Positions 3,190-54,272 of a DNA stretch of 64,000 nucleotides are shown here, one piece after another (positions within the stretch are counted from its first letter, which is position 1; each line of letters starts with the position of its first letter). The translations under genes and the position numbers were made by a program. Where the stretch lies: contig JBMNIH010000002.1 of assembly GCA_050950825.1 (NCBI GenBank), positions 416,001 to 480,000 of the forward strand, in the 5' to 3' direction. The notes under the pieces were generated by a model. The model saw only the letters and a list, made by a program, of their open reading frames with translations. It had not been told where the DNA came from and made no database searches. This stretch comes from Clostridia bacterium (lineage in GTDB: Bacteria; Bacillota; Clostridia; JAAYHZ01).

Positions 3190-4147
3190 AGGATACTCCC
3201 CCTTTACTATTATTTCCGTAAGGCTTTAATACAATACCCTTTTCGAGATTATGCCCGCATACCCCGATAGGCATGCAACGGCAGTTTTCAAACTGTATTT
3301 CATAAATCATAACGGTTCCGGGATTCGCCGCGATTTCAATGTAATCTTTGGTAATCTCCAGAAGGGTCCCGGGCTCCGCATCGGTTATACGGTCGGTGTA
3401 ATAGGATTGGATCAGTTTCATTCTTTTGCCTTCGTAGAAGGTATAGGCTCCGGGCCACGGCGTAACGCCGCGAATCCGATTATGAATGTCGATAGCCGGT
3501 TTGTTCCAATCGATACGTCCGGTTTCCTTATCCACCATGGGTGCGTAAGTGGCTTTTGAATGATCCTGAGGAATTCTTTTTAAAGTACCCTCGTTAAGCT
3601 TTTCCAGCGTTTCCTTTAAGACCTTCGCTCCTAACTCCGCCAAAATGTCATGCAATTCTCCTACGTTCATACGATCGTGAACGGGAATCTCTTCCGAAAG
3701 CAAAATATCGCCGGTATCCATTCCCCGATCCGTCATCATTGTCGTGATGCCGGTGACGGTAAATCCGTTGATCAACGCATGGTGGATGGGTGCAGCGCCT
3801 CTTAACAAAGGAAGCAAGGAAGCATGGACGTTGACGGTACCGTAAACGGGAATGTCCAAAACCTGTTGAGGTAAAATCTTACCGTACGCAACGGTAATCA
3901 TCACGTCCGGTTTCAACGTCTTTAATTGCTCCAAAAATTCTTGAGTTTTGACGCTATCCGGCTGCAGCACATTCAAATTGTTTTTTAAGGCTACTTCTTT
4001 TACCGGCGGGCAGCACAGTCTTTCTCCTCTGCCCTTCGGCTTATCGGTTTGCGTAATGACACCGACTATGTTGTAGCCTTCTTTTATTAACATTTCCAAA
4101 GAGGGAACGGCAAATTCCGGTGTCCCCATAAAAACAATCCTCATCAA
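3179..4147 (-). CDS. fmt: Methionyl-tRNA formyltransferase
   Basis: VFMGTPEFAV and NVHASLLPLLRGAAPI motifs. Confidence 0.96.
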   Translation of the reverse strand: MMRIVFMGTPEFAVPSLEMLIKEGYNIVGVITQTDKPKGRGERLCCPPVKEVALKNNLNVLQPDSVKTQEFLEQLKTLKPDVMITVAYGKILPQQVLDIPVYGTVNVHASLLPLLRGAAPIHHALINGFTVTGITTMMTDRGMDTGDILLSEEIPVHDRMNVGELHDILAELGAKVLKETLEKLNEGTLKRIPQDHSKATYAPMVDKETGRIDWNKPAIDIHNRIRGVTPWPGAYTFYEGKRMKLIQSYYTDRITDAEPGTLLEITKDYIEIAANPGTVMIYEIQFENCRCMPIGVCGHNLEKGIVLKPYGNNSKGGVSCVL

Positions 4148-46067: not shown

Positions 46068-46930
46068 TATTCAATTCCTTTCTAACTTACGCTTATTATA
46101 ACACAGGGTGCCGGGAATGAAAACGACCACAATCGTCACATATATAGAAGATAATGTTTGTTTTTATAAAAATTCTTCACCCCGCATCATATAAACGTTC
46201 TTCAACCTTGATTGAAAAAGTAAAGTCCACTTTGCAAGGTTAAATTCCATCCATCCTAAAAAATTATTGCATAAGGTGGGATAAAATTATTCTAACAAGG
46301 AAGAATTGTTACTATGGAAGGATTTTTTCTGCAAAAAGCAAGTGAATGCTTCATTTATTACCTGTTTTTTTGCATAGCAAACAAACCGTGTTGATTTCTT
46401 CACTTTTTTGCAAAGGTAAAATCCACTACGGTTAAAAGGTAATAATTGGCAGAACGATGCCTTTCGGATAATTATTAATACTTTAATAAATCGGGATTCA
46501 AACAAATATTATTCGGTTCAATGAGTTTGGATCCCAATTTTTTTATTACTTCTTCACCAAACATAAATTTAAACACTTCATGAGGAGTTCTATCATTTAA
46601 AGATAATCCGGAGTAAGAATTTATGTGGTTCATTACAAGATTAATATCTTCCTGCACGAGATTATCGAAGCTTGTTCCTTTCGGTAAGATCTTCCTCAGT
46701 TCCCCGTGATTTTTTTCTTGTGATGCCCTTTGATAAGCTGAATACGAATCGCAATAAAAGACCTTAGTTCTAACTTCTCCGGTTACTCGGTAGTATTCAA
46801 TCGCTTTCGGGTTCGTAAATTCACTGCCCTTGTCAGCCAAAAGTATGGGAAACAGTTTTCTATTTAGCCCCCTAATATAATTGGAGAAACCATACGAATT
46901 TAGTAAAATGAATATAGGGGGTTAATCCAA

Positions 46931-47236
46931 ATGAAACACTATGATGATAAGTTCAAGGAACAAGTAATAAAAGAATGTCAAGAAGTGGGTAATATTTCCC
47001 TTGTTGCTAGACGCCATGATATATCCAAAACTACTATATATGGTTGGATAAAAGCTTATAAGAAGAGAGGTTCAGTCACTCCACTTCCTAAAAATAAAGA
47101 CAATAGAGTAAAAGAATTAGAACATAGGCTTAATGTTGTAAGCACAGAAAATGATAGATTAAAAAAGCTTGTTGCAGAAAAAGAGTTAGAGCTGCTAATA
47201 CTTAGAGAATTAAGGGATAGAGTAAACCCCAAGTAG
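46931..47236 (+). CDS. IS3 OrfA (HTH plus leucine zipper)
   Basis: YDDKFKEQVIKE...VARRHDISKTTIYGW...ENDRLKKLVAEKEL. Confidence 0.88.
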   Translation: MKHYDDKFKEQVIKECQEVGNISLVARRHDISKTTIYGWIKAYKKRGSVTPLPKNKDNRVKELEHRLNVVSTENDRLKKLVAEKELELLILRELRDRVNPK

Positions 47237-48195
47237 CCGACAAGGTTGCAATTGCATTAAGGTGGATAAATAAAGGTTATGATATATCTTTAGTACTTGG
47301 CTTTGTCGGCATTGCTGCATCCACCTATTATGAATACATAAAAAGGCAATCAAAATCTAATAGAAATCATAATATTGCAGCATCTAATAAAGATAATGGA
47401 AGGCCTAGACCTGGTTATTCATATACAAAGACCGGTAGAAAAGTATCTGATGAACAAATAAAGGAGTGGTTATGCAATTTAATATCAGGAGATGGTTTTC
47501 CCTATGGTTACCGTAAACTAACAATATGTCTTAGAGAAGATTATGATCTAATTATCAATCATAAAAAAGTATATAGGCTGTGTAAAGAATTAGATATACT
47601 AAGACCTCAAAGAAAAATAAAGGAAAAGAGTTCTAAGCATTTAGCTAAGAAAGAAACAATATCAGCTCCCAATGAGCTTTGGGAAATGGATGTAAAATAC
47701 GGATATATAAGCGGAGAAGATAAATTCTTCTTTCAACTATCTCTAATAGATGTATTTGACAGAAGCATTATAGATTATCATATAGGCTTATCCTGTAAAG
47801 CTTCTGATGCTTGCAATGTATTGAGAAATAGTATAAGAAAGCGCAATATATATGGTGGTTTAAGGACACCTAAGATAAGGACAGACAATGGCCCTCAATT
47901 TGTATCTAAAGAATTTGAAGAATTCTGCAACAGCAATAATATAGTTCATCAAAGGATACCAGTAAAAACTCCTAATATGAATGCACACATAGAATCATTC
48001 CATTCAATATTGGAAGATGAATGTTACAGTCGCAATGAATGGAACAATTTTAAGGAGGCATACGAAACAATAACTGAATATATGAATTATTATAATAATC
48101 GCAGAAGGCATGGAAGCATAAAATATATGGCTCCAAATAAATTCTATGAAGCAATTATGAGAAAGAATGTAAAAGCTAAAGCATTTGCTGCATAA
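47221..48195 (+). CDS. IS3 OrfB (DDE integrase), -1 frame relative to OrfA
   Basis: Frame open from 47221; YGYRKL, WEMDVKY, RTDNGPQF, NAHIESFH. Confidence 0.85.
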   Translation, partial: SKPQVADKVAIALRWINKGYDISLVLGFVGIAASTYYEYIKRQSKSNRNHNIAASNKDNGRPRPGYSYTKTGRKVSDEQIKEWLCNLISGDGFPYGYRKLTICLREDYDLIINHKKVYRLCKELDILRPQRKIKEKSSKHLAKKETISAPNELWEMDVKYGYISGEDKFFFQLSLIDVFDRSIIDYHIGLSCKASDACNVLRNSIRKRNIYGGLRTPKIRTDNGPQFVSKEFEEFCNSNNIVHQRIPVKTPNMNAHIESFHSILEDECYSRNEWNNFKEAYETITEYMNYYNNRRRHGSIKYMAPNKFYEAIMRKNVKAKAFAA

Positions 48196-49747
48196 TCTCC
48201 ATAATTAGGGGGTCAAACCGTTTTCGAAACGTGTCAAGACCCAAAAGCTCTGTCAGTTTGTCGAAAACATCGATTACCGATTGCGAATCGTTCGAGTCTC
48301 GTAAAAATGCAAGCATAAATTCGGTTTTAACAAAATGCAACGTCATCAGCACTTTACCGCCTTTTGTACCAAGCACCGAATCCATTTCCACGACGAAAGG
48401 AGCATTAACATCTGCCATCACTTTTTTTGTAATCATCATACGTGCGTCCTATTCGGCATTCGCGATCCACTTTATGAGTTACGCCCGGTTTTTTGCGAGA
48501 TCGATATCTTACTTTTCTGGGCATATCAATATTACGAGCCGTGAAGAGGCCGTAGTCAACGTAATTGTATAACGTCCTTTCGCTGTACATAATTTTATCG
48601 GCATTGTTTACGCAAATATGATGAATGGACTGGCCTTTTTTCAGAAGAGGTGATATCACGGTATCCAATTGTTGCAACGATTTTTCATCGATTGCCACAC
48701 CGGAACGTGATTCCGAACGTGTATATTCATATTCTTTGTCTGCAACTTTAGCGTCGTATATCATTTTTTGCAATGAGCACTTGCGTTTTGTCGAGCATCC
48801 GTTACATACGTAAGGCGGTTTTTCGAGAGCATCACACTTCTGTTCTACGAAAGCATCACAGAAGTCATTGCACAGTCTGCATATGCTACAGATCCCTTTT
48901 TCGCAAACTCCGCTTTTTTTACATAGCGAACGTTTATGACAACCGATCCTGTACTTACATGCATTGTACGATTGGCCGAAAGCACCTGTCTTTCGTTCTA
49001 CCCGATGTCGACGAACTTCTTTGGATATTGTCGTGCAATCTTTACCGAGTATTTTACCGATTTCCTTAAAAGATTTTCCCTCCTTCAATAAGTTTTCGAT
49101 ATCTTTCCTGTCTGATAACGTCAAATGAGTTGACATCATTATGGTTCTCCTTTCAAAATCATTTTGAAAGACATCGTTCTTTTTTAATGATTGCACTGAT
49201 ATCGGTAAGTAATACATGTCTTGTTAGTTTTTAGTTTTAGATCATGACAAAAGTCCATCCGGTTAAAAAGACAAGCAATGGCCTTTTGCGGCATAAACGG
49301 CCTCCTTCCCGGCAAAGCCGGGTCCCTTCCATTTATTCCACAGTGCCATGCTTTTCTTTTTTCGCCATGCTTTTGAACATATACCGAGGGATGAAGGGGA
49401 GATGCAAGCGACCAATTTCTCAACATCCCTCGTCTTTTATATCGTAGCATGGCGAACACCGTATTACTTTTATATTTGTTTAGGTAATGATAGTCTCAGG
49501 AATCAGCTAAAAATGCATGCTTTCTTTACTAGTAATTTTTTGTATTTGCGTTTGCATTAGTAAAGTCCACAATATTTTTATTAATATTTTTGCAAAAGTA
49601 AAATCAACTGCAGCTTTCGAAGGGTGGACTTTACTTTTTCAAATGAGCAGAACGTTCTTCAACGACGAATTTGTAAAGGAAAACCTTCAGTATTTTTCGA
49701 TATATGGTATATTAATATGTAAAAAACCGTTTGCTTGGAGGGGAATG

Positions 49748-50803: not shown

Positions 50804-52185
50804 GAAGGGGGCTGTTGCACTAAAAAGAAATAGTGCACAGCCTCTTTTTATTTAATTGATAAAAAATAAATCCCGATGCCCAAGAAGCAAGGGATTTATA
50901 GTAAAATAACAATATGAAAACCTTAAAACTTAATAAGAAGTATACATTTAAACGAAGAAATTATCAACTAAAACTTCCAATAGAATTGGAATATAAAATT
51001 CCTGACGATGATCCGGTTCGCTTGTTGAGTCATTTTGTGGAGGAGATGGATTTAGAAGATTTGTATTCGACTTATTCTCGTATAAAGAGAAACCAAGCAA
51101 GCCCGCGTCAGATGCTTAAAATCTTAATTTACGCATACATGAATCATATTTATTCATCAAGAGACATAGAAAAAGCATGTCGTCGCGATGTAAATTTTAT
51201 GTACCTTTTAGAGGGTATGCCGGTACCTGATCATGCAACGTTTTCCAGGTTTCGAAGCTTGCATTTCACACCTTGTGCCAAAAGAATTTTGAGTGAAATG
51301 TCCGAATTTCTCTATGATATCGGAGAATTATCCGGCGACGCCATATTTATTGACGGCACGAAAATAGAGGCGTGTGCAAACAAATACACTTTTGTCTGGA
51401 AAAGAGCGGTCACAAAAAATCAAGAGAAGTTGCTTGCAAAATTGGCGGATTTCTTCGCGGAATGCGAGGAAAAGTACGGAATCAAAATAGTATACAATAA
51501 TCAAGTCGAAATGAAACACGTTAAAAAGTTACGCAAGAGACTGTATGCCATAAAGAAGGAAGAAAACATCGAGTTCGTACATGGAAAAGGGAAGAGAAAA
51601 ACACCTTTCCAACGATCCATTGAGACTTTGGAGAATTATTTGGATAAGCTGAAGGAATATACGAAAAACATACATGTATGCGGAGACCGCAACAGTTTTT
51701 CAAAAACGGATCACGATGCGACGTTTATGAGAATGAAAGAGGACGCCATGGGCAACGGTCAGCTGAAAGCGGCATATAACATTCAACATGGCGTTGACTC
51801 CGAGTACATAACATGGGTAACGGTGAATCAATGCACAACGGATGCACCGACTCTAATACCTTTCTTGAATGAAATGAGATCCCATTTAAAATTCAAATAC
51901 AAAAAAGTTGTCGCGGACGCAGGATACGAAAGCGAAGAAAACTATATTTACTTGGATAAAAACGGCCAATCGGCGTATATTAAACCGTTAAATTACGAAC
52001 AATCCAAAACCAAGAAATATAAAAATGACATTGGTCTTATGGAAAATATGGAATACCATGCAGAAGGAGATTATTACGTCTGTCATAACAAGAGAAAACT
52101 TGTCGTTAGCGATATAATAAAGAAAAGAAGCAAAAACGGATTTTTGAGCGAGAAAACGGTTTATACATGCGAAGATTGCAGTGAT

Positions 52186-53892
52186 GCTCATTTGAAAAAG
52201 TAAATTCTACCCCCCGAGATACCTAATGTGGAATTTACTTTTTCAAATTCAGAAGTGGAATTTAGTTTTTCAAAAAGGTAAGATGTTTATGGTGGTGCCT
52301 CTTTTGGAGGTACATATGAACAAGAACAAACATTTGACCTTGGAGGATAGGAATACTATTGAACTAAGATTAAAGGAAAGAGAATCCTTCAAAGCTATTG
52401 GACGTGAGCTTGGCAAGGATCCAACTACTATCGCTAAAGAAGTTAAAAACCACCTTCAGTTTAAAAAGACCGGTTGCTATGGAAAAGCCTTTAATGACTG
52501 CCGCATTAGAAAAAACTGTACTGTACGGCATCTTTGTGGCAGCAAAAGGTGCAGACGTTACTGCTGCTTCTGTAACACCCATTTTTGTTCGACACTTTGC
52601 CCTGATTACCGGCAGGAAACATGTCAAAGACTTTCAAAGTCTCCTTATGTCTGCAATGGCTGCGAAGTCAAAACTTCCTGTACGCTGGAAAAAAGAACTT
52701 ACTCTGCACTGCATGCGCAAAGAGAATACGAAGCAGTCCGTTCAGAGTCACGTCAGGGCGTACAACTAACCGAAGAAGATGCGCTGAGACTGGATTCTCT
52801 TATCAGCCCTCTCATTATGAAAGGCCAGTCTCTCCACCACATATGTGTTAGTCATGCAGATGAAATCATGCTCAATGAACGCACTCTCTACAACTATGTG
52901 GACAAAGGCTTCTTTGCAGCCAGAAATATTGATATGCCTCGTGTTGTACGAATGGGAAAACGCAAGAGGAAGAATGAACAGTTCAAGGTGGACAAGAAAT
53001 GCCGGAACGGTCGCGCTTATCAGGATTTCCTTAAATTTATGGAGGAACATCCCGGGCTTCCTGTCGTTGAAATGGATACGGTCGAAGGAAGAAAAGGCGG
53101 CAAAGTGCTGTTGACGCTGCATTTTACCATACCTCAGCTAATGCTCGCATTTATCCGGGATGCCAATACTTCACAGTCCGTTATTGACGTGTTCGATAGG
53201 CTTTACAAAGGACTTAATCCGGATGTATTTCGCAGCTTGTTTCAAGTGCTTCTCGGGGATAATGGTAGTGAATTCTCCAATCCATCTGCCATTGAAATGG
53301 ATTCTCAGGGAAAACAAAGGACCCGAATTTTTTATTGTGACCCTCAGGCGTCATATCAGAAAGGTGCAGCTGAAAACAACCATACGCTGATCAGACGTAT
53401 AATCCCCAAGGGAACATCACTTGACAATTTTACGCAGGAGGACATAACACTTATGATGAATCACATTAATTCCTACAAAAGACTCAATCTCGGTGATAAA
53501 AGCCCTTATGAAGTCTTCTCTTCCCTTTACGGTGAAGAAATCCTAAAAAAGATGGACGTGGAACCTATCGCGTCAGATATGGTCATCCTTCGTCCATCCC
53601 TTCTTAAAAAATAAAACTTTAATAAAGAGGCACCACCTGCCGTAACTTCATAAATACACAATAAACAGGGGTGGAATTTACTCTTGCAAAAAGTGAGCTA
53701 ACATTTCACCCTTTATTTAGTGCACCCTAAAAACGGTTGGTTTTGCGCTCTTTACTCATATTTTATACTATTCATAAGTAAAAGTCACTGAAAATAAACC
53801 TTATTTTATTGCTGGATTAATATTGTTTTCTCCCGGTTTCAGAATCTGTGGAATTTACTTACGCAAAGTGGAATTTAACTTTTCAATTCACC
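52186..53892 (+). mobile_element. IS30-like element B (apparently intact)
   Basis: 25-bp imperfect IRs GCTCATTTGAAAAAGTAAATTCTAC / (rc) GGTGAATTGAAAAGTTAAATTCCAC; 13-bp direct repeat AGATTGCAGTGAT at 52173-52185 and 53893-53905. Confidence 0.92.
52316..53614 (+). CDS. IS30-family transposase with Cys-rich insert, 432 aa
   Basis: HLTLEDR HTH; VEMDTVEG, GDNGSEF, AENNH (DDE); GGAGG RBS. Confidence 0.92.
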   Translation: MNKNKHLTLEDRNTIELRLKERESFKAIGRELGKDPTTIAKEVKNHLQFKKTGCYGKAFNDCRIRKNCTVRHLCGSKRCRRYCCFCNTHFCSTLCPDYRQETCQRLSKSPYVCNGCEVKTSCTLEKRTYSALHAQREYEAVRSESRQGVQLTEEDALRLDSLISPLIMKGQSLHHICVSHADEIMLNERTLYNYVDKGFFAARNIDMPRVVRMGKRKRKNEQFKVDKKCRNGRAYQDFLKFMEEHPGLPVVEMDTVEGRKGGKVLLTLHFTIPQLMLAFIRDANTSQSVIDVFDRLYKGLNPDVFRSLFQVLLGDNGSEFSNPSAIEMDSQGKQRTRIFYCDPQASYQKGAAENNHTLIRRIIPKGTSLDNFTQEDITLMMNHINSYKRLNLGDKSPYEVFSSLYGEEILKKMDVEPIASDMVILRPSLLKK

Positions 53893-54272
53893 AGATTGCA
53901 GTGATTGCTCCTTCAAAAGTAAATGTATAAAAGGAAATAGCAAGATTCCGTTGACTGAAAGGGTAAAAAGACTTCACGTGGCGAAGGAATTTATCCGACA
54001 ACGAGAAAAAGCCATGGAAAGAATACGGAGCGAAGAAGGCTGCATGCTTAGAATAAACAGAAGCATACAGGCGGAAGGATCTTTCGGAACAATAAAGCAG
54101 GACATGGGATTTCGGAGATTTTTGTGCAGAGGTAAGGCGAATGTACTTGCCGAGAGCATACTACTGGCTATGGCTTTTAACGTAAATAAGCTTCACAGTA
54201 AAATTCAAGCCGGACGAACCGGTACACATCTTTTTCAATTTGAAAATAGTGCTTAAGTGAAAACAAATTAAA

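Follow-up and report, generated by a model that had tools for sequence, protein, structure and literature searches.

Covarying complementary arms bracket an IS30-family transposase gene and may couple its translation to transcript completeness

Architecture of element B

An insertion sequence of the IS30 family, which we term element B, occupies positions 52186–53892 (1707 bp, plus strand) of a 64,000-nucleotide window from the genome of a Clostridia bacterium (assembly GCA_050950825.1, contig JBMNIH010000002.1, positions 416,001–480,000); all coordinates below are those of this window unless stated otherwise. Its boundaries are established by an identical second copy, by divergent flanks and by empty-site contigs: the second genomic copy (locus L002) is 100% identical over window positions 52185–53893 and diverges beyond them, and RNA-library contigs from three runs join position 52172 to 53893. 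The sole open reading frame (ORF) is the transposase coding sequence (CDS; 52316–53614, plus strand), which encodes 432 residues comprising an HTH_38 domain, a Cys-rich stretch and an IS30 DDE core, as delineated by Pfam and NCBIfam matches, and whose ATG start is shared by homologues. An initial annotation, made from the letters alone, had called the protein an IS30-like transposase; this assignment is borne out by a match to the NCBIfam IS30 model NF033563 at 114.5 bits (cut-off 80, E 7e-33), and the Pfam model HTH_38 matches residues 3–44 (3.5e-15). The Cys-rich stretch between the helix-turn-helix and the DDE core (~residues 50–125, window 52460–52700) is covered by no Pfam model.

The transposase CDS is bracketed by two short segments, hereafter the arms, which are 14 nt each, 100% complementary to one another and 1319 nt apart (inverted pair I6). 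The 5′ arm GGTGGTGCCTCTTT (52291–52304, plus strand) ends 11 nt before the ATG (52316–52318), and its 3′ half is the strand that opposes the Shine–Dalgarno (SD) sequence in the predicted leader fold. The 3′ arm AAAGAGGCACCACC (53624–53637, plus strand) follows the TAA stop codon (53612–53614) after a 9-nt spacer (53615–53623). The initial annotation had placed this perfect complement at exactly these coordinates. It had also proposed a leader hairpin that hides the GGAGG sequence, and RNAfold agrees: for the B leader, a local hairpin at 52295–52313 is predicted, with eight pairs between 52295–52302 and 52306–52313, a UUU loop and a minimum free energy of −11.1 kcal/mol, leaving the SD (GGAGG, 52306–52310) with an unpaired probability of 0.04. 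A stable local stem that encloses the SD, a trait of IS200, is thus predicted for B as well.

Both arms lie inside the element. We considered them as candidate terminal inverted repeats and rejected this, because the element ends at 52186 and 53892, fixed by the second copy, the target duplications and the empty site, lie 105 nt further out on the left and 255 nt further out on the right. By our own arithmetic, a 14-nt match between leader and trailer has a chance expectation of (45−13)×(70−13)/4^14, or ~7e-6; for an inverted repeat of any 14-mer in a stretch of 1707 bp it is ~0.005.

Covariation of the arms among homologues

The B protein has more than 7700 relatives in Clostridia, mainly of 432 residues and annotated as IS30 family transposases. 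We retrieved 160 loci, 148 of which were full-length matches; together with the window these gave 122 unique leader/trailer pairs, and for each pair we scored the best ungapped helix between positions −45 to −6 and the 70 nt that follow the stop codon. A helix score of at least 8 was reached by 86 of the 122 cognate pairs versus 2186 of 14762 non-cognate pairs (15%), and a score of at least 12 by 45/122 versus 616/14762, the non-cognate matches falling mostly within one subfamily. Bulged helices, such as those spotted by eye at L171 and L105, are missed by an ungapped search. The helices represent 73 distinct arm pairs, inside which 887 pairs are Watson–Crick and 21 are not; arms with an exact downstream complement include AGCGGCGCCTCTT, TGGAGGCGCCTCTT, GGATGGTGCCTCA, CGTGTTGGGTTT, GTAATGCCTGCCT, CACCAGCAGCT and GCGATGCCGGGC. 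The homologue comparison suggested by the initial annotation therefore came out in its favour, since homologues retain the complementarity.

The subfamily of B, defined as 47 unique loci of at least 65% identity, allowed 13 helix pairs to be aligned. Across 605 cells of this alignment 93.4% are Watson–Crick, compared with 84.5% when the 3′ partners are permuted among rows (maximum 86.9% in 1000 permutations) and 28–51% when the partners are slid. At 9 of the 13 pairs there are variants in which both partners have changed in a compensating manner. Changes on the tree are unevenly spread: pairs 7–11 (GCCUC, the anti-SD strand) show 1, 2, 2, 0 and 0 changes, and pairs 1–6 show 2–7 changes each, a combination of a near-invariant anti-SD half with a variable remainder that fits a double constraint on the 5′ arm. 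Over the same loci the end motif GGGGTGGAATTTAC keeps its sequence, unlike the arms. Letters that vary while complementarity stays are the pattern of base pairing and not of a protein site. One detail of the initial annotation fared less well, in that the mini-hairpin GGCA/UGCC proposed for the 3′ arm folds in B (−4.7 kcal/mol) but is unconserved, with 20 of the 47 subfamily 3′ arms folding at −2 kcal/mol or better.

The same layout recurs in element A, a relative with 53% identity to B that lies on the minus strand of the window (~46200–49200) and has unrelated arm letters. Here GAACGATGTCTTTC precedes the SD, GAAAGGCATCGTTC follows the stop codon at a distance of 14 nt, and the two form 14 pairs including one U.G, just as expected from the earlier description of element A as sharing the architecture of B with other letters.

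Taken together, chance can be rejected as the origin of the arm complementarity, on the strength of the cognate versus non-cognate helices, the permutations and the distal helices described below. As judged from the aligned sequences, the conserved 5′–3′ complementarity is genuine with near certainty, and the comparison supports that it is selected and maintained throughout the clade by compensatory changes.

Five canonical IS30 elements of 315–351 residues, from a small sample of ten inspected loci (one with too short a flank), carry no SD-adjacent arm; their longest complementarity lies ~89–103 nt upstream of the ATG, as terminal repeats. The arms were seen solely in relatives of the long Cys-rich form, and not in the five canonical elements of ~350 residues. 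A search for known RNA families returned seven Rfam matches (E 0.14–0.89), none of which came near the gathering score and each of which fell on the left-end hairpin or the leader.

Placement of the arms

Placement was measured on 69 distinct arm pairs at the expected sites and, like the arm sequences and their covariation, is read directly from the loci. The helix is 8–20 bp long, mostly 12–14 bp. The 5′ arm always adjoins the region where translation starts, its end lying 12–31 nt upstream of the ATG. The spacer between the stop codon and the 3′ arm measures 6–17 nt in 63 of the 69, with a peak at 9–11 nt, and the end motif follows 22–41 nt past the 3′ arm in 58.

Some relatives carry a second small ORF (ORF2) of 63–102 residues that overlaps the transposase stop codon (ATGA), as observed in family C of this genome (G000 C7:156413-158000), L181 and L183. 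In such two-gene variants the 3′ arm is found 12–24 nt past the ORF2 stop and 170–320 nt past the transposase stop. A perfect helix of 12 nt in L183 lies 318 nt past the transposase stop and 12 nt past that of ORF2, and the corresponding values for family C are 11, 188 and 18 nt. Among 30 loci that lack a proximal helix, six possess a distal perfect helix of at least 11 nt, versus 10 of 870 non-cognate pairs. Since the 3′ arm of the two-gene variants sits behind the last ORF, the arms bracket the whole coding unit and not the transposase gene as such.

A predicted switch at the ribosome binding site

One strand of the leader hairpin is also one strand of the long-range helix. The accessibility of the SD was predicted with the 5′ arm free and with it blocked. 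For 39 leaders of the B subfamily, the unpaired probability of the SD rises from 0.04 in the leader alone to 0.85 with the arm blocked, and in 38 of these leaders the arm forms at least four pairs with the SD–AUG region. For each of 77 leaders, the predicted duplex between the arms exceeds the leader fold in stability, with a margin of at least 8 kcal/mol in 65 of them, and four full-length folds gave the long-range helix probabilities of 0.97, 0.96, 0.82 and 0.99.

The start of the transcript is predicted from sequence. A putative −10 box, TAAGAT (52279–52284, plus strand), lies 6 nt before the 5′ arm of B and belongs to a TATGAT/TAAGAT block in the subfamily alignment; a −10-like hexamer upstream of the 5′ arm is present for 58 of the 69 distinct arm pairs, in 44 of them at a spacing of 5–8 nt. 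With this spacing, transcription would begin at the 5′-most bases of the arm.

A model for the transposase message emerges. The two arms would be the strands of a long-range helix in the plus-strand transposase mRNA. Such a helix would tie the 5′-most bases of the message to a position 9 nt beyond the stop codon, with the entire coding region closed into a loop between them. In the B subfamily the 5′ arm would have two alternative partners, the SD or the 3′ arm, and could not pair with both. Early in transcription the 3′ half of the arm (GUGCCUCU) would fold on GGAGGUAC and mask the ribosome binding site (RBS); once the 3′ arm has been transcribed, the 14-bp helix would displace the hairpin, starting from four unpaired 5′ bases, and the SD would be freed. 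Complete transcripts alone would then be translated, and loss of the 3′ end would shut the message off again. From the observed arms we infer the promoter, the transcript ends, the pairing of the RNA in cis and its activating effect. Pairing in cis within the mRNA is likely, and the arms most likely pair and control the amount of transposase. A switch that senses the complete message is plausible for the B subfamily and is the reading that we favour for B itself, and we put the probability that the long-range helix frees the SD there, so that only complete transcripts would be translated, at roughly 0.5.

An extension of this model, which we consider unlikely, is that of a closed-loop device. 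The helix would set the stop codon (9–11 nt away) beside the SD and AUG (2–12 nt away); it would license intact messages, remain as near to the stop codon as a terminating ribosome permits without unwinding it, and return ribosomes to the start. If this holds, rare first initiations would lead to short bursts of transposase per complete transcript, and the RBS would close again after 3′ decay has removed the arm.

Alternative roles of the helix

Several observations weigh against the switch, and four other readings were considered. The first concerns subfamilies remote from B. For 38 leaders of less than 65% identity, the median unpaired probability of the SD is already 0.49 in the leader alone and 0.58 with the arm blocked, and the arm makes at least four start-region pairs in just 15 of the 38. 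The claim of the initial annotation that end-to-end pairing opens the RBS thus stands as a prediction for the subfamily of B (0.04 to 0.85) and fails for these more distant subfamilies, in which the SD is not buried. Because the SD is already open there, RBS opening cannot be the universal role of the helix; closure of the message may be the universal feature, with the RBS switch as one use of it. Helices were also not found everywhere: of the 30 loci that lack a proximal helix, 24 likewise have no perfect helix of at least 11 nt within 400 nt, by an ungapped search that passes over a few bulged helices seen by eye.

That the helix is kept in subfamilies without a buried SD is what would be expected if it mainly protects or processes the message, as a block to decay from the 5′ end, a stop for 3′ exonucleases or a site for a double-strand RNase, with any effect on the SD secondary and specific to a subfamily. 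We regard this as unlikely. It would account for a 5′ arm that begins at the predicted transcript start. The terminator scan, moreover, found no terminator past the 3′ arm, which also counts against the switch; the structure itself could then define the mature 3′ end. What protection leaves unexplained is the invariant anti-SD half of the arm in the B subfamily and the constant adjacency of the 5′ arm to the SD, and helices of 8–16 bp are short for RNase III. Precedents for 5′/3′ untranslated region (UTR) pairing that affects decay are described, in the portions of the sources at hand, for icaR with RNase III (PMC3868564) and for hbs (PMC5737220).

The open SD of the remote leaders is equally compatible with a closed form that is silent, so that translation would have to await 3′ trimming or some other trigger. 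The fold computed for full-length L062 points the same way, and away from the switch, because SD accessibility drops in it from 0.59 to 0.10. This drop arises through non-conserved partners. We had taken up folds of whole mRNAs as a test of SD accessibility and rejected them, since the SD pairs with non-conserved sites in the ORF (933–941 in B, 622–637 in L062); a freed SD that pairs with arbitrary ORF sites means that global folds cannot decide the direction of the effect. The differing ORF positions of these partners between elements argue against silent closure, as does the subfamily of B, in which the predicted partner of the 3′ arm is the anti-SD strand and not the SD, so that the latter should be freed. 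Both hok and icaR operate in the silencing direction, according to the account given in PMC3868564. On balance we find a silent closed form quite improbable.

The transcript data carry neither starts, ends nor strand: RNA-library contigs from four of the 24 listed runs cover the ORF and the 3′ region, and 52224–52285 has no contig cover in runs X1–X3, which is not evidence. The generic promoter scan called no site before the 5′ arm, a further point against the model, and the promoter and terminator sites that such scans did call are no more numerous than in shuffled sequences. Two side observations were made at the right end. Run X2 contains a 176-nt contig, 53559–53734, which includes the stop codon as well as the 3′ arm and the inner motif, at a depth of 84 versus 7–11 for ORF contigs, depths that cannot rank regions; either a stable 3′ fragment or a unitig common to many related elements could account for it. 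On the minus strand, a promoter-like site from 53788 to 53760 (GTGACT, 17 nt, TAAAAT), of a kind not above shuffles, would give an antisense RNA over the 3′ arm.

These features would be of consequence if the arms act in trans, either through a stable 3′ fragment that opens the leaders of other copies or through a right-end antisense RNA that masks the 3′ arm, making expression dependent on copy number. The deep contig is a weak hint at the former, given the limits of contig depth, and the promoter-like site reads across the 3′ arm as the latter would demand; co-resident subfamilies of this genome have unrelated arms, which also suits action in trans. The ISPpu9 precedent, as far as its description reaches, concerns a trans-acting RNA proposed to make the RBS of a transposase accessible. 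An RNA that acts in trans, however, would not obviously need the tight and conserved spacing from the stop codon, the scan found no promoter or terminator delimiting a small RNA, and no Rfam match at the gathering score was obtained. Action in trans is, in our estimate, distinctly unlikely.

Finally, the arms could have their role at the DNA level: they could be remnants of ancestral IS30-type inverted repeats, a pair of protein-binding sites or a single-strand panhandle that joins the ends. The terminal repeats of Escherichia coli IS30 lie at distances from the ORF that resemble those of the arms. Wobble counts, taken overall, favour neither strand, with 9 G.U versus 6 A.C (3 versus 2 in an earlier pass), and the duplex energies of the plus and minus strands are equal (−28.8 versus −28.8, p = 0.98), which would suit action in DNA; single mismatches say little here, however, since the genome copies are probably young and neutral. 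Older changes are more telling. In a clade of 75–87% nucleotide identity in the CDS, four members carry U.G at pair 6, where the sister has C-G, and internal A.C mismatches occur in single copies only; persistence of the wobble through divergence is consistent with pairing in the plus-strand RNA. Free sequence with kept complementarity is, moreover, the opposite of a protein site, while the GGGGTGGAATTTAC end motif is conserved. The arms match at 93–100% of positions and the terminal repeats of B at 18 of 25, and the motifs adjoining the arms are direct, not inverted, repeats. We consider action in DNA very unlikely.

Relation to known systems

Pairing between the two ends of a bacterial mRNA is described for hok, RNAIII and icaR in the part of PMC3868564 available to us. 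In hok of plasmid R1, the 5′ end pairs with the 3′ end after a local 5′ hairpin has formed first, and the pairing covaries within the family (Thisted 1995 and Moller-Jensen 2001, as relayed in PMC3868564). B would resemble hok in joining the extreme 5′ end of the message to the 3′ end, a pairing that for B is predicted from complementarity and covariation. The closed form of hok, however, is silent and is activated by 3′ trimming, whereas the 3′ arm of B would pair with the anti-SD strand, such that closure should expose the SD. B also possesses neither a toxin ORF nor a Sok-like antisense gene.

In icaR of Staphylococcus aureus, a UCCCC sequence of the 3′-UTR is reported to pair with the SD directly, to block ribosomes and to recruit RNase III (PMC3868564, seen in part). 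A 3′-UTR segment that pairs with its own 5′-UTR at the translation start region would be common to icaR and B; unlike the icaR sequence, the 3′ arm AAAGAGGCACCACC contains GAGG, is itself SD-like and not anti-SD, and would pair with the competitor of the SD. The hbs message of Bacillus subtilis provides a further end-to-end pairing in a Firmicute mRNA, a 5′/3′-UTR interaction tied to RNase access and translation (PMC5737220). It differs in being a single housekeeping gene for which the accessible part of the report describes no anti-SD competition.

A structure that hides the RBS on a transposase message, as predicted for B, has counterparts in IS200, IS10 and ISPpu9. An SD hairpin is described as keeping translation of the IS200 transposase low, and for ISPpu9, of the IS110 family, the available description has an antisense small RNA, Asr9, that is complementary to the 5′-UTR and is proposed to unfold its structure and raise translation. 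In these systems the structure is opened by separate RNAs or never, whereas the proposed opener in B lies behind the stop codon of the same message. No description of 5′/3′ complementarity in IS30-family or other transposase mRNAs was found in the literature searched, in which subscription journals are mostly uncovered.

The amount of transposase is the main brake on insertion-sequence activity, and known brakes comprise local hairpins, antisense RNAs, frameshifting and Hfq. If the switch is real, it would add a new control principle, in which translation is tied to the completeness of the transcript, in a clade of more than 7700 predicted proteins, and it would join a very small number of bacterial 5′/3′-UTR interactions. 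We know of no other such interaction with dozens of natural compensatory variants. These variants would constitute a ready mutational series for the study of long-range pairing, co-transcriptional folding and ribosome loading, and the arms, being short and orthogonal between subfamilies, could serve as design parts.

Element ends and genomic surroundings

The insertion of B generated a 13-bp target duplication, AGATTGCAGTGAT, of which the left copy occupies 52173–52185 and the right copy 53893–53905 (direct repeat D5, 100%). The second copy, L002, has its own, different 13-bp duplication at 1489–1501 and 3209–3221 of that locus. Both thus exceed the 2–3 bp of IS30 itself; longer duplications occur in some family members. 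In the window target, TGCTCCTTCAAAAGTAAAT past the insertion point is similar to the left end of B itself.

Each end of the element carries three copies of the motif GTGGAATTTAC..TTTCAAA, as identified by repeat analysis. The left end (52186–52274, plus strand; repeat family D1, inverted pairs I1–I3) comprises the terminal inverted repeat and the three copies, at 52190–52210 in reversed orientation, 52228–52248 and 52255–52274. At the right end, the innermost GGGGTGGAATTTAC copy lies 30 nt past the 3′ arm (53668–53698, plus strand; D1, I2), and the two terminal copies form the right inverted repeat (53848–53892, plus strand; D1). By manual count, the terminal repeats at the 52186 and 53892 ends match at 18 of 25 positions (pairs I2, I5), a length within the ~20–30 bp of the IS30 family. 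The terminal motif of the left end and its next copy constitute a near-perfect 21-bp hairpin (52190–52248, I1), which could, as a structural prediction, block read-through transcripts or be bound by the transposase. Folding of the left end overall has a z of −3.88; at the right end z is −1.59 and the structure is not unusual. The family is described as moving by a copy-out/paste-in mechanism via circles or dimers (PMC9333248, available in part), and no contig with a circle or dimer junction was present among the RNA-library contigs of the four runs.

At 46–54 kb of the window, clustered insertion sequences, element B among them, lie nested around a URO-D-like gene. The ORF of element A is interrupted by an IS3-family element (ORFs 46931–47236 and 47686–48195; HTH_Tnp_1, rve). 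B itself splits a transposase gene of IS1182/IS5-like type (50914–52185 and 53893–54256), with DUF772 and DDE_Tnp_1 upstream and a DDE_Tnp_1_6 fragment downstream, and five other right ends of this IS1182/IS5-like element, 93–95% identical, are present in the genome.

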